21,808 nucleotides of DNA, from IMG/VR virus record IMGVR_UViG_2690316278_000015. The stretch is one strand, 5' to 3'. The position numbers were made by a program, and so were the translations under genes. Below are positions 1 through 21,808 of the stretch, piece after piece. Under the pieces are notes generated by a model. It did not search any database. It worked only from the letters and a program-made list of their open reading frames with translations, and was not told the origin of the DNA. This DNA comes from a virus. Its lineage: Duplodnaviria; Heunggongvirae; Uroviricota; Caudoviricetes. Position 1 is the stretch's first letter. Each line of letters starts with the position of its first letter.

Positions 1-1461
1 ATGGTGAACGGTACTTTTATCTATTGGTTGAACCTCAACACGCCGGGGAACCTTCGCGGTATCACAACACGCTGTGTTCTGTTAGATGAGGTCAGTAGCT
101 GCGAAATCACTGATGAAGGGAACCCAATCAAACTGGCAGAAGCACGTACCAGTACCTTCGGTAGTGACTCACTGGTGGTTGTATCTTCCACGCCATTGTA
201 TAAAGACGATTTAATCAATGCTGAGTACAACCTCAGTGATAAACGTAGGTACTTTGTTACTCACACATGCGGTCATGAATATACTTTTGAATGGGAACAA
301 GTAGCGTTTGAATTTAAGCAATTAGAAAATGGTAGATCCATTCCTGATAGTACTACTACTCGTTTGTTATGCCCTCATTGCAATGAGGGAATAGATGAAC
401 ATACACGGCATCAGATGGTTGATAATGGTCGATGGATTGCAACTAATCCAGATGGGGAACCGGGTGTAGTAGGGTATCAAATCAGTAGAATGTATTCACC
501 TCTGAATACTATTACTGAAATGGTTTCAAAGTTTGCTGATGCTCTATATAACTTCAATCTTCAAACCTTTTACAATAACGAATTGGGCTTGCCATTCGAA
601 GATGAGTATCAAAAAGAATTAGATATTCTCCAATTAGAATCCCTACGAGAAGATGAATTTAACCTTTATAAAATTCCTGAAAGTACCTTAGCGTTGTGTA
701 TTTCAGTTGATCAGCAGGGTGATAGGCTGGAAAGTCTGCTTTTAGGTTTTGATGAAAAGAACATTTATGTACTTGGGCATGAGTTTTTCTACTCCCACGA
801 TTGTACGAAGATTGAAGCCCCAGCTTGGAAGGATTTAGATCAGTTTTGCCGTCAGGATTTCAGTACTGTATCAGGTCGCATAGTACCTACACTGGCTGTG
901 TTCATTGATGCAGGGAACGGTAACGCTACGGATACTGTGAAAAAATTCACTACACGTTGGAGTAAGTATCATCCGATCAAGGGTAGCAGCTCCACTACTG
1001 GTGAACTATTCAAGACCAGTACTCAGGCGGGGTACAAACTACAGATCCTAAACGTACATGAACAGAAGAACACGATACGCCGCCTCCTGAACCTGATGCT
1101 ATCCAGTGAGGCAGATAACGCCCCGGTTAAGCTCCGCTTCAGTAGTACCTTACCATCAGATTTCTTTGAGCAACTTTCAGCAGAGGAGTTAAAACCCGCT
1201 GGTGGTAAGTTGGTATGGCGATTAAAGAAAGGTCAAAGAAGAAATGAGGCTTTAGACCTAATCTGTTATGGAATGATCGCCATAGCATATGCCCAATCAA
1301 AATTAGGTACTCAACCATTCAGGAAGTTACGCGATTATAAAGCACAGGAAACCACTAAATACGAGATAAATAAAGTAGAAGAACCAAAACCAGAAACAGT
1401 ACAAAAACCAAAACGGAATAGACGTACTGGAATGGGATCAAACTGGTTCGGTAAAAGATAA
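1..1461 (+). CDS. Terminase large subunit, lambda GpA-like, 5'-partial (window starts inside the gene; N-terminal ATPase region with Walker A is expected upstream)
   Basis: 486-aa ORF open from base 1. LLDEV (Walker-B-like hhhhDE) near the start, Cys/His cluster (HTCGHEY...CPHCNEG), long C-terminal region consistent with a nuclease domain. Sits directly upstream of the portal gene. Family assignment by recall, not search. Confidence 0.75.
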
Positions 1462-1472
1462 GGATATCAAAA

Positions 1473-2003
1473 ATGACACTTCTACCAGAAAAGATCTACA
1501 TGGTATCGAATCCCATGGATCTAACGGTATTAGTACCCGCTGCTACTATTCTTGTTATTAGTTTTACATCATCTGGAAAAAGTACCTCATTAGATAATTT
1601 AAATGGTAGTACTTCAAAAGAATTTACGGTTGTATTAGATATGAGTACAGCACAGGAATTACTATTCTGTACTCAAATATCTAATGGTCAAACCAGTACT
1701 TTTACTTCTGAAGTCATTAATCCATTACTTTATACTTCTGAGTACTCCCAATTAAAACAGATGATCAGTGAAATTGATCAGGTTATAGCTAATAAAATTG
1801 CAGGCGGTGCTAATTACTCAATAACAATTAATAATAAGACTCTTGTAAGTGAATCATTATCATCGCTTGAATCAATGCGGGAACGCTATGTAAAACGTGC
1901 TAATGCTCTATTTGTGAAAATGAATGGCGGTACTTTCTCTAATGGCGGTAAACCAATCAAGAGTATTACGGTTTTCAGGCCTAAGCCAGGGAGTACACGC
2001 TAA
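1473..2003 (+). CDS. Hypothetical Ser/Thr-rich protein in the position of lambda gpW (between terminase and portal)
   Basis: 176-aa ORF; AAGGA Shine-Dalgarno 7 nt upstream of the ATG; stop overlaps the portal start (TAATG at 2001-2005), suggesting translational coupling. No motif recognised. Confidence 0.5.
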
Positions 2004-3511
2004 TGTTCTGGAATAAGAAAAATAAAAATTCAGAAACTAAACCCAAGAAGATTAAACAGGAACGTTCCTTAAAACAAAGTACCTTAAAACGAGATCTACA
2101 GGCAGTACGCAACACATCAGTAATGAACTTCGGATTCAATTCAAACTCAGGCAGCAATATCAACTTCCTTCTGATGAAAGCACTACCTACCTTCAGGGCT
2201 TTCTCACGTGATGCAGTACTTAAGAATCCTATTGGTCGTAAGTACATGAACCTATCGGTAGATGGCGTTGTAGGCTCTGATGGCCTGTACGTTAAACCTT
2301 CAGTAGAGATTGACGGTACTGAAGAAGAAATCAACGGAATCAATCTAACCTTGGAAAAGCTCTTTGACCGTTGGGCATATGATGCTGATCGTTTTAGTGT
2401 TGATGGCTCATTAAGTTTTGACCTGTTTCAGCAGAACGCAGAGAAGGTAAGGGTCCAGGATGGTGAATGCTTTATTCGTATACACAATATTAATAATACC
2501 ATCAAGTTAGAAATTCTCGATACGGTTCGTTTGCTTCAGTTAAATAATCAACGTTTGAGTAATGGTAATTATATTAGTAATGGTATTGAATTTGATAAAT
2601 GGCATAAGCCAGTTAATTACTATTTCTGTAAATTCGATCCTGTTACCTATACTTATATCACTGGCGATTATGAAGTAATTCCCGCTGCGGAAATCTGTCA
2701 CTACTTTATTGCTGATCAACAAGGCCAGGAACGCGGATTGCCGGACATGGTTGCAACTTCCAAATTAATGGAAGATCTCAAGAACTTCACTGAGGCTGCG
2801 TTAACTGCGAAACGTGTATCTGCATCGTCAATGGCTTTTATTACCAATAATAACGACACTACCAGTACTGATCTGTTAGGGGCTGATGAACGAGAAGAAG
2901 TTACACCAGTATATACAGAGTATTTTGAAGCTGGCTTTATTGGTGAGTTAGCCGAAGGGCAGGATATTAAAACTGTTACACCTACTAATGGTGTTGATGG
3001 GATTGATCAATTTACCAATGAATTGATGAATCAGATCTCGATGGGTCTGAACATAACAAAGCAAGCCTTATTATCTGATACATCCAATGCTTCATTTAGT
3101 GCAAGCCGACTTACTGAGAAATTACAACAAACTACATTCCGTACCCGTACTAATGTACTAATCAGTAAAGTACTTAAACCAATTTATATCGCCTGGTTAA
3201 AGAACGAAATGCTAAATAACAATAAGTTAAATCTAAGTTTCTCGAGCTTTGATGATCTTATTTGTGCTCGGTATATTTCTCAAAAGCCAATTAGTTTAGA
3301 TCCTGTAAAGGATATACAGGCTGAACTACTCCAGTTAGAAGCAGGTATTAAATCTAAAACACAGGTTATTGCTGAGTTAGGCGGTGATCCAGTGAAGGTA
3401 TTAGCAGAGGTACAGGCAGAAAAGGATAAAGAAAATAAAAACAAGGAAGTAATCCAGGATGGAAATGAAAAACCAGAAGAGGGAACTAACGAAACCCCTA
3501 CAGGCGATTAA
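2003..3511 (+). CDS. Portal protein (lambda gpB-like size class)
   Basis: 502-aa ORF immediately after the terminase and before the protease/capsid gene; acidic C-terminal tail; size typical of lambda-type portals. Gene order plus size; family by recall. Confidence 0.75.
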
Positions 3512-20542: not shown

Positions 20543-20551
20543 GGTAAATAT

Positions 20552-21210
20552 ATGGCAAGTGGAATAAATGGNNNNNNNNNNNNNNNNNNNNNNNNNNNNN
20601 NNNNNNNNNNNNNNNNNNNNNNATACAAACGCAGGGAGTTAGATTAAATAATCAATTCCAGAATGAAATAATTAAACGTTCCAAGCTACTATCCCAAAGA
20701 ATGCAGGGTGATTTGAATAATAGCGTTGACCGTGGGGCNNNNNNNNNNNNNNNNNNNNNNNNNNNNNNNNNNNNNNNNNNNNNNNNNNNNNNNNNNNNNN
20801 NNNNNNNNNNNNNNNNNNNNNNNNNNNNNNNNNNNNNNNNNNNNNNNNNNNNNNNNNNNNNNNNNNNNNNNNNNNNNNNNNNNNNNNNNNNNNNNNNNNN
20901 NNNNNNNNNNNNNNNNNNNNNNNNNNNNNNNNNNNNNNNNNNNNNNNNNNNNNNNNNNNNNNNNNNNNNNNNNNNNNNNNNNNNNNNNNNNNNNNNNNNN
21001 NNNNNNNNNNNNNNNNNNNNNNNNNNNNNNNNNNNNNNNNNNNNNNNNNNNNNNNNNNNNNNNNNNNNNNNNNNNNNNNNNNNNNNNNNNNNNNNNNNNN
21101 NNNNNNNNNNNNNNNNNNNNNNNNNNNNNNNNNNNNNNNNNNNNNNNNATGATGGTGTAAGGGTAATTATGAGCGGTATTCAGGGAACATTCAGGATAAG
21201 TAGACAATGA
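20552..21210 (+). CDS. Hypothetical protein, interrupted by two N runs (extent and frame continuity unverifiable)
   Basis: ATG 20552 with GAGGT SD (MASGING...) runs into N run 20572-20622; open frame resumes (IQTQGVRLNNQFQNEIIKRSKLLSQRMQGDLNNSVDRG) into N run 20739-21148; an open frame exits that gap and stops at 21210, overlapping the next ATG (ATGA). Could be more than one gene. Confidence 0.3.
20572..20622. other. N run (51 nt)
   Basis: Continuous n characters. Confidence 0.99.
20739..21148. other. Masked/unknown sequence (N run, 410 nt)
   Basis: Continuous n characters. Confidence 0.99.
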
Positions 21211-21518
21211 ATTTTGAGCAACATTATGGTGATTTAATAAGCAAGATTAAGCTAAATGGCATGACACCAGATGGTAATAGTATGCCAATTAACAAATGTT
21301 TTCTTGATAAGAAATTTCAAAAGGTCGTTAAGAAAAGTAATTATCAGATTGATAGCTATATGAACGTTATTTATGAGAAGAAGAAAGATTTCAAAGTTGG
21401 TGAAGTACTTGAATGGGAATTACAGGGTGAAAAGATGCCTGTATTTCTAATTGAGAGTAAAAAGCTCTTTGTGAAGGGTAAACATTTTTGGGTATATGCC
21501 GTGGGGATTATTGAATGA
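21207..21518 (+). CDS. Hypothetical protein (Lys-rich, 103 aa)
   Basis: ORF translationally coupled on both sides (ATGA overlaps at 21207 and 21515). A+T-rich. No motif recognised. Confidence 0.5.
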   Translation: MNFEQHYGDLISKIKLNGMTPDGNSMPINKCFLDKKFQKVVKKSNYQIDSYMNVIYEKKKDFKVGEVLEWELQGEKMPVFLIESKKLFVKGKHFWVYAVGIIE

Positions 21519-21808
21519 TTAGTATATTGATTGAGTTTCTGAAGTCAGGATTGGATTTTTTCATTAAGAAGAAAACTATTGAACAGGAAGTAAAGAAAAC
21601 GAATGTAGAAGGGCAGATTGAAACGAATAAAGAAGAGATTGAAAAGGTAACATTCCACTGGCGTAATGCCCTCGGTTTTGTACTAACCCTTATCATTCTC
21701 TATAACTGGATCATAGTACCAGTACTTGATGCTTTTGGAATTATTGTGATCCAAGTTCCATTAGGACAACTTTTGCAAGTGCTATTGATTATGGTTGGTG
21801 GAAGCTGA
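21515..21808 (+). CDS. Putative holin-like membrane protein, 3'-partial (runs off the window end)
   Basis: Open frame of 97+ aa: charged, coiled-coil-prone N-terminal 40 aa, then at least two hydrophobic segments (ALGFVLTLIILYNWIIVPVL; GIIVIQVPLGQLLQVLLIMVGG). No stop before window end. Confidence 0.5.
   Translation: MISILIEFLKSGLDFFIKKKTIEQEVKKTNVEGQIETNKEEIEKVTFHWRNALGFVLTLIILYNWIIVPVLDAFGIIVIQVPLGQLLQVLLIMVGGS

Follow-up and report, generated by a model that had tools for sequence, protein, structure and literature searches.

The window analyzed here is the whole 21,808-nt stretch of the viral record IMGVR_UViG_2690316278_000015 (Caudoviricetes). It covers the packaging, head, tail and lysis region of a siphovirus-type prophage. 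The window contains 1,738 nt of N (~8% masked), leaving 20,070 called bases. The four-base palindrome GTAC, often extended to AGTACT, occurs in this region far more frequently than its base composition predicts, and its sites are preferentially conserved among related prophages. Gene calls are based on open reading frames (ORFs), and the names of the core genes in 1..12478 are PHROGs assignments. In the following list, O/E is the observed-to-expected ratio of GTAC.

1..12478, plus strand: core late genes, from the terminase through the tape measure; GTAC-rich except for the chaperone-G gene
1-1461, plus strand: large terminase
within 1..12478, plus strand: head-tail joining protein
2003-3511, plus strand: portal
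3459-5303, plus strand: protease-capsid fusion
within 1..12478, plus strand: fibre with tandem repeats, tail tube and chaperones
9431-9742, plus strand: chaperone-G gene; no GTAC in the window, O/E 1.63 in orthologues
10127-12478, plus strand: tape measure
12489..13061, minus strand: cargo ORF of 190 aa, with phrog_3829 as its only family assignment; 1 GTAC
13063..19583, plus strand: core tail-tip and downstream genes; GTAC-rich as far as 19254
within 13063..19583, plus strand: distal tail protein, DUF2163-like protein, DUF6950-like protein and small ORFs
14723-18142, plus strand: J-like tip fibre
19311-19583, plus strand: 90-aa ORF, the last of the tail-tip block; near neutral, O/E 1.12 with one orthologue
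19622..20071, minus strand: lysozyme, a core lytic gene; 7 GTAC, 15.6 per kb
20108..20542, plus strand: small SegE-type GIY-YIG nuclease; the E. coli family member has one at the same position
also in the window: holin-like protein

The window contains 237 GTAC sites, or 11.8 per kb of called bases. The number expected is 55 from base composition, 74 from a first-order Markov model and 167 from a maximal-order Markov model. When both strands are pooled, GTAC is the top 4-mer (3.3x), AGTAC/GTACT are the top 5-mers (6.1x) and AGTACT is the top 6-mer (11.8x). All other palindromic 4-mers are at or below 1.3x. AGTACT accounts for 77 of the 237 sites and CAGTACTG for 8; dinucleotide-preserving shuffles contain 7.1 +/- 2.8 copies of AGTACT. 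A preliminary description of this DNA had proposed that GTAC is over-represented, often as AGTACT, and the excess proved larger than it had claimed. Its local counts, made by hand, were right within one or two: there are 14 to 16 sites in 7000-7300, 4 in 4400-4650, 9 in 13000-13600, 8 in 19600-20100 and 1 in 12489-13061. In the Markov-corrected count of all 4-mers over the whole window, the O/E is well above 1, and it does not fall to about 1 after correction for codon usage or dinucleotide composition. The peak of about 16 sites at 7000-7300 is caused by a tandem duplication in the fibre gene. A 75-nt unit is repeated there in 4.2 copies (6989..7303, plus strand), each unit carrying 4 GTAC, and the array encodes 25-residue repeats. 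The lysozyme gene, although on the minus strand, is GTAC-rich too, and the enrichment is thus independent of the coding strand.

The bases around the sites mirror each other. A is found at position -1 with a frequency of 0.58 and T at position +4 with a frequency of 0.57, and position -2 (weak preference for C/A) mirrors position +5 (weak preference for G/T). Apart from this weak -2/+5 preference, the window sites have no consensus wider than A-GTAC-T. The two half-site preferences are independent, as the 77 AGTACT sites compare with 74.6 expected from half-site frequencies. The distances between sites are near-geometric (coefficient of variation 1.06), and no helical (10.5-bp) or other short-range periodicity was found except the codon period. 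The window itself does not contain a dense cluster of sites that could serve as a search pattern. With symmetric and independent flanks and random spacing, the motif therefore resembles a 4-bp palindrome read with two-fold symmetry, in which density matters over position. Binding sites for SlmA (GTGAGTACTCAC), which hold AGTACT between GTG and CAC, were considered and rejected. No match to them with at most 1 mismatch is present in the window, and the 16 matches with at most 3 mismatches include only 8 of the 77 AGTACT sites. A G stands directly before AGTACT in just 9% of cases.

Codon usage could in principle produce such an excess, and the preliminary description had offered codon-pair bias as one possible cause. 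Synonymous shuffles, in which codons are swapped within each gene so that the proteins and codon usage are kept, gave 123.5 +/- 7.7 GTAC in coding sequence against 230 observed (z 13.9), and 18.7 +/- 3.8 AGTACT against 75 observed. When the dinucleotides were preserved as well, the shuffles gave 166.7 +/- 6.2 GTAC and 29 +/- 4 AGTACT. Shuffling of codon order gave an expectation of 90 GTAC. Each reading frame is separately enriched (z 3.9 to 8.3), with 83, 114 and 33 sites in the three frames against 46.5, 61 and 15.7 expected, which is about two-fold in each. Non-coding DNA carries 5 GTAC in 559 nt, a density like that of coding DNA. Since the word crosses frames and is invisible to translation, the constraint is therefore on the nucleic acid itself.

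All synonymous routes to GTAC are strongly preferred. Valine is written as GTA in 85% of cases before a codon that starts with C and in 43% elsewhere. Before threonine, serine is AGT in 79% (27% elsewhere), glycine is GGT in 86% (49%) and arginine is CGT in 73% (33%). Threonine itself is ACT in 66% of cases after NGT and in 36% elsewhere, and tyrosine is TAC in 62% after NNG and in 30% elsewhere. The enrichment of non-coding DNA and of each frame, together with the strand-symmetric flanks, rejects codon-pair bias as the cause; the two synonymous shuffles and the three-frame enrichment likewise rule out an artefact of codon or codon-pair usage. Codon and codon-pair usage is the means by which GTAC is written, not its reason.

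A broader proposal, under which the excess simply follows from codon usage, from amino-acid composition or from how the DNA of a former host was composed, is extremely improbable. The preferred codons GTA, GGT, ACT and AGT do lift the baseline (to 90 and 123, compared with 55 to 74), and the tandem repeat contributes about 12 copies. However, no codon-aware null reached about 230, both synonymous shuffles are exceeded with three frames enriched, and codon choice depends on context. The excess is lacking in control phages of equal GC content, and the sites are conserved in a family restricted to Enterobacterales. A relic of a former host is also at odds with the oriented E. coli Chi sites and the CTAG deficit described below, which look as if they come from long residence in enteric hosts.

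The excess is a family trait. About 30 related prophages from E. coli, Salmonella, Serratia, Scandinavium, Buttiauxella and others are enriched, with a GTAC O/E of 1.8 to 3.3 in all relatives and AGTACT at 8 to 12x in most. Even in a Serratia element whose helicase is just 32% identical, GTAC is the top 4-mer (1.88x) and AGTACT reaches 5.5x. The family includes 19 IMG/VR contigs, and members are also present in the genomes of Scandinavium lactucae and of a Buttiauxella metagenome-assembled genome. A megablast search of cultured phages and plasmids gave no match to the window, and the family is known solely as prophages and metagenomic contigs. E. coli ESBLEC_MG48 has a complete copy, about 35.6 kb long, inserted in ybhA. 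More distant members were retrieved through homologues of a family-conserved 650-aa protein. These homologues are found in Enterobacterales only (Enterobacter, Pantoea, Erwinia, Escherichia, Salmonella, Serratia, Rahnella and Scandinavium).

Host DNA does not share the bias. The GTAC O/E of the host flanks is 0.3 to 0.8, with almost no AGTACT, and a lambdoid prophage that lies 10 kb off on the same E. coli chromosome has an O/E of 0.47. These two comparisons rule out host composition as the cause. The GC content of the elements is 34 to 42%, compared with 46 to 58% in the host flanks. A general trait of low-GC coliphages is ruled out by Escherichia phage DCP80, whose siphovirus-like part, a distant relative with the same 40% GC, has a GTAC O/E of 1.07 and whose T4-like part has 0.63. 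In full-text literature searches of an incomplete library, no report of GTAC or AGTACT enrichment in phage was found.

Individual sites are preserved during divergence. The window was aligned with 17 relatives whose nucleotide identity to it is 69 to 85%. In these alignments, GTAC 4-mers have survived in 64% of comparisons, as opposed to 43% for other 4-mers, and synonymous third positions are kept in 79% of cases inside GTAC and in 62% elsewhere. The third base of GTA is kept at 0.865 before C compared with 0.564 otherwise (p 4e-9), and AGT before AC is kept at 0.88 compared with 0.78 otherwise (p 0.008); as the relatives share ancestry, the trials are not independent, and these pooled p-values overstate the independence of the data. 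The other codon classes follow the same trend without significance, except CGT, which does not. The direction of the overall effect is the same in every relative.

The enrichment is not spread evenly over the genes. In core genes, with 12 to 14 orthologues each, the O/E is 2.1 to 4.75, the chaperone-G gene being lower as listed. It is 2.1 to 4.6 for the late genes in 1..12478, with 3.15 for the C-part of the fibre gene on the basis of one orthologue. For the tail-tip genes from 13063 on, it is 3.6 to 4.75 in orthologues, the 90-aa ORF excepted; this set excludes a 98-aa and a 218-aa ORF that have no orthologue. A single GTAC is present in the cargo ORF (12489-13061) and 1 to 2 in each of its homologues (55 to 85% identity), giving a pooled O/E of 0.93. 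The preliminary description had called this ORF an opposite-strand moron in which the bias is relaxed, and its GTAC content is indeed at the neutral level across homologues. Its position, between the tape-measure and distal-tail genes, is a variable slot where other relatives carry a different insert or none. Foreign origin, which the same description had deduced from the depletion, is supported by the variable slot and the neutral GTAC content. The arrival was not recent, however, as the flanks of the relatives that share the slot differ by about 25%: for moron homologues in the same slot, the flanking genes are 73 to 75% identical and the ORF itself 67 to 84% (16 to 33% divergence).

Other cargo is neutral as well, including an OLD-family nuclease cluster, SMODS/SLATT pairs, a PLD-like gene and a HAD phosphatase. 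In 17 kb of pooled cargo, there are 37 GTAC against 31.7 to 51.3 expected. Certain replication and recombination modules behave in the same way. In the L036 element, the recombinase gene has an O/E of 0.32 and the adjoining helicase gene 3.5. The helicase gene of L029 has an O/E of 0.76, compared with 3.3 for the L032 helicase gene, with 76% identity in protein. For the same residues, the L029 gene avoids the word by using GGA-ACG for GGT-ACT, GTT-C for GTA-C and TAT for TAC. The neutral modules in L036 and L029 appear to have been exchanged. Neutral cargo and neutral modules speak against a process that affects the entire replicon. GC content is a less sharp guide to the prophage borders and to the split between core and cargo than GTAC density and the absence of GCGC are. 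A packaging or structural motif was another suggestion of the preliminary description. Such a motif for the DNA molecule as a whole, or a bending code, fits poorly with random spacing, lack of helical periodicity and resident cargo that is not enriched.

Cargo is found at two hot spots. The first is the tape-measure/distal-tail slot (window 12479-13062; L004:19170-20059; L008:19280-19973; L013:19122-19798). The second lies upstream of the small terminase gene in L022, L031, L033 and L036 and holds minus-strand genes of defence type (OLD-family nuclease, SMODS plus SLATT, PLD-like and 8xMP). The Serratia member has a Hha-family gene in a separate minus-strand cluster right after the helicase gene.

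The split between core and cargo bears on the possibility that the excess is neutral. Biased mutation or mismatch repair during phage replication, similar to very-short-patch repair or to the repair model for the highly iterated palindrome HIP1, could create and restore GTAC. Such a process would also conserve existing sites, and the neutrality of newly recombined modules looks as if the excess accrues slowly. However, cargo that has diverged by 16 to 33% within the family, and has been replicated together with the core, is still neutral. The one-transition neighbours that such repair would consume are not depleted: GTAT/ATAC is at 0.95 (0.88 in relatives) and GTGC/GCAC at 0.96. No Vsr-like or cytosine-methyltransferase gene was found in the element, and host DNA, which is exposed to the same host repair systems, is not enriched. 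Biased repair is therefore unlikely to be the source of the excess.

The functional unit could also be RNA, with GUAC or AGUACU in lytic transcripts serving as a site for an RNA-binding protein or nuclease, or with self-complementary hexamers compacting late mRNA. A palindrome is present in the transcript whichever strand codes, lytic genes on both strands are enriched, and cargo that is usually expressed in lysogeny is spared. Recognition of RNA gives no reason, however, for flanks that are dyad-symmetric despite the asymmetric composition of the coding strand, nor for independent half-site preferences. UAC-type mRNA interferases would favour avoidance of the word and not its enrichment. No candidate RNA-binding protein was found, and we regard an RNA motif as very improbable.

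Short palindromes are classic textbook targets of restriction, and phage genomes are expected either to avoid them or to carry them at neutral levels. Avoidance is indeed widespread in this family, also among hexamers that contain GTAC. GGTACC (KpnI/Acc65I type) occurs once in the window (17180..17185) when about 9 (9.3) are expected from the flank frequencies of GTAC. It is absent from 27 related loci, and over eight elements 1 is observed when about 35 are expected. CGTACG is likewise missing; GGTACT and AGTACC are common. In two sublineages, AGTACT itself is depleted relative to its half-sites, with 7 against 23 in Salmonella (L032) and 9 against 17 in one E. coli sublineage (L033), and the GTAC core is still at 2 to 2.9x in them. 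CTAG is absent from the window against 72.5 +/- 8 expected and is at 0 to 0.9 of expectation among close relatives, and TGCA varies from 0.09 to 1.6 in relatives. The variation in CTAG and TGCA looks like fast, host-specific restriction avoidance. A link between CTAG loss and GTAC gain was rejected, as the two are not correlated over 28 loci (rho -0.22, p 0.26).

The strictest avoidance concerns GCGC, which is absent from the window against 23.7 +/- 4.4 expected. It is absent from all 272 kb of 13 family loci (e.g. L004, L012, L020, L022:8485-41512, L031:7129-22973, L032:7181-21938). In host flanks it is present at about 1.9x, and the ban ends exactly at the element border. Cargo is also under the ban: about 13 copies are expected and none is present. 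The pattern suggests a nuclease specific for GCGC, whether a ubiquitous one or one that the family itself encodes. The SegE-type GIY-YIG nuclease (20108..20542) is a candidate for the GCGC ban and has no demonstrated tie to GTAC. Formation of GTAC by double transition from the banned GCGC was rejected, since the roughly 24 GCGC expected could not supply some 160 GTAC in excess, and the intermediates are not enriched. The family is shaped strongly by nucleases that read short palindromes, and its response is loss of sites. A family that purges palindromic sites in this manner would not merely tolerate about 12 GTAC per kb, and this density is therefore deliberate.

The same avoidance bears on covalent modification, which the preliminary description had also raised. 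GTAC could be the target of a phage or host enzyme that adds a methyl or bulkier group, with the density raised to enlarge the modified fraction. Restriction-modification enzymes typically recognize palindromes of 4 to 6 bp, and many ORFs of the element are without assignment. The iterated palindromes of cyanobacteria co-occur with cognate methyltransferases (PMC4390886). However, a scan for Pfam domains of methyltransferases or base-modifying enzymes found none among the ORFs of the window and of the complete E. coli element, and no such enzyme was found in the early regions of two relatives. The purge of GGTACC and CGTACG, and of AGTACT in two sublineages, would be needless if GTAC were blocked, and it argues that GTAC is not shielded by modification. 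The family copes with restriction by site avoidance (GCGC absent; CTAG and TGCA variable), and host DNA has no GTAC excess. Modification as the cause is thus not supported and appears quite unlikely.

Several other observations concern word usage and the prophages themselves. All three copies of the E. coli Chi sequence (GCTGGTGG) in the window, at 1198, 10232 and 10370, are on the plus strand, with about 0.1 expected per strand. Over 18 family loci, the 24 Chi sites are likewise all on the plus strand, and the site in the terminase gene recurs at the matching position in many relatives. The pattern is consistent with Chi-based protection of a cos phage; no Gam-like inhibitor was found. GTC/GAC is the most depleted trinucleotide of the window (0.48; family 0.39 to 0.76, controls 0.72 to 0.92), and TATAAT and AGGAG are at 0.2 and 0.25 of expectation. 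The major capsid protein and its N-terminal prohead protease domain form one 614-aa ORF (3459-5303), whose start overlaps the end of the portal gene (2003-3511) by 53 nt.

In E. coli NZ_CM132639 (L022:7867-10330, L023:27192-28404), the ybhA insertion was made by a large serine recombinase. At its far end, the E. coli prophage has a gene for a HAD-family pyridoxal phosphatase, which may substitute for the disrupted host gene. In another E. coli member, the large terminase gene is broken into three ORFs (L033:19111-20943), and the prophage copy is probably defective; GTAC is still at 2.0x. In DCP80 (PQ671644; L024, 1-50000), a siphovirus-like structural module (1 to ~25 kb), with a capsid protein 30% identical to that of the window, is joined to a T4-like genome. 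GATC is absent from both parts, and the record may be a chimeric assembly.

The reading we favour, with a probability of about 0.4, is that GTAC, preferably with A before and T after it, is a selected word of double-stranded DNA read by a two-fold-symmetric protein. The palindrome, its equal and independent flanks and its indifference to the coding strand all point to such recognition. Active selection would keep the word at very high density in the prophage's own long-resident genes. The word would be written through synonymous codon and codon-pair choice in three frames, and individual sites would be protected from loss. By size, the candidate reader could be grouped with restriction-modification enzymes or with small dimeric nucleoid proteins, and it could come from one of the many unassigned phage ORFs or from the enteric host. 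The density of sites would mark or coat the core DNA in a cumulative manner, by coverage, with no single site being decisive. Cargo genes of the lysogeny type would lie outside this regime. As the word is confined to core lytic and establishment genes, its role may be to mark, silence or protect these modules.

Several points weigh against this reading. In the complete E. coli element, no ORF has a recognizable GTAC-binding or GTAC-modifying domain, and we know of no enteric host protein with GTAC specificity. A 4-bp site is short for a regulatory DNA-binding protein. The neutrality of cargo could reflect its frequent horizontal replacement. A repair system that restores GTAC would conserve sites as selection does. 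Since the palindrome is identical in transcripts of either strand, the reader may also act at the RNA level.

A more specific form of the selected DNA word is conceivable, and we consider it rather unlikely. GTAC density would then be a sequence-encoded partition of the prophage, in which a family-specific dimer on about 400 core sites silences, protects or marks the lytic modules. Cargo expressed in lysogeny would be kept free of the word, and a family-encoded nuclease would explain the GCGC ban. If true, a virus without modified bases would mark its own DNA by word density, and this form of self-marking would be new. In any case, a family that fully avoids several palindromes nevertheless enriches and conserves one, which dictates codon choice at hundreds of positions. 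If the reader exists, it would add a new DNA-level layer to phage biology, consisting of self-marking, silencing or protection by word density.

Comparison with known word biases places GTAC in context. Restriction-site avoidance acts on the same class of words (4- to 6-bp palindromes) by the same means (synonymous substitutions). In this family it accounts for GCGC, CTAG, GGTACC and CGTACG, and in some sublineages for AGTACT and TGCA. GTAC itself, at 3.3x, does not fit this class and has the opposite sign, being enriched and conserved. In very-short-patch repair, which produces the CCWGG excess and CTAG deficit of E. coli, a word bias is also tied to a short palindrome. The host-type signature of this process (CTAG deficit, CCAG/CTGG excess) is present in the window. 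GTAC differs in that its one-transition neighbours are not depleted, no pair of methyltransferase and Vsr was found and the host lacks the bias.

Chi, the FtsK-orienting polar sequences (KOPS) and DNA uptake sequences are dense DNA words under selection because a protein reads them. These words are non-palindromic, 8 to 12 bases long and located in cellular chromosomes, with known readers and, for Chi and KOPS, polarity. In contrast, GTAC is a palindrome with symmetric flanks and without strand orientation, and it is specific to the phage rather than the host. Among small dimeric nucleoid or genome-coating proteins, whose sequence preference is minimal, EbfC of Borrelia binds GTnAC, p6 of phage phi29 coats the phage genome and CgpS is a prophage-encoded silencer of the Lsr2 type. 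Small dimers can thus read a 4-bp palindrome, and phages and prophages do encode proteins that silence or organize their own genomes. No homologue of EbfC, p6 or CgpS was detected in the family, and the likeness is a functional speculation.

The nearest precedent is HIP1 (GCGATCGC), which occurs in all reading frames and in intergenic DNA and whose conserved orthologous sites have been taken as a sign of selection (PMC5861425). Its function is unresolved after decades, and the debate is between selection (PMC5861425) and methylation-directed repair (PMC4390886). GTAC shares each of its main features: a short palindrome far over expectation, presence in all frames and in non-coding DNA, and conservation of orthologous sites. 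However, HIP1 is a GC-rich 8-mer of bacterial chromosomes enriched 15 to 300x, whereas GTAC is a 4-mer, with a 6-mer as its preferred form, enriched 3 to 12x in a family of 35-kb prophages. Iterated palindromes of the HIP type co-occur with cognate methyltransferases, of which the window and the complete E. coli element showed none. HIP1 is also periodic over 10 to 90 kb, a scale that is impossible in an element of about 35 kb, and the short-range spacing of GTAC is random. On the best reading, the GTAC case would be a phage analogue of HIP1. If a reader exists, these prophages would provide a small, inducible and genetically tractable model for the long-unsolved HIP1 problem.

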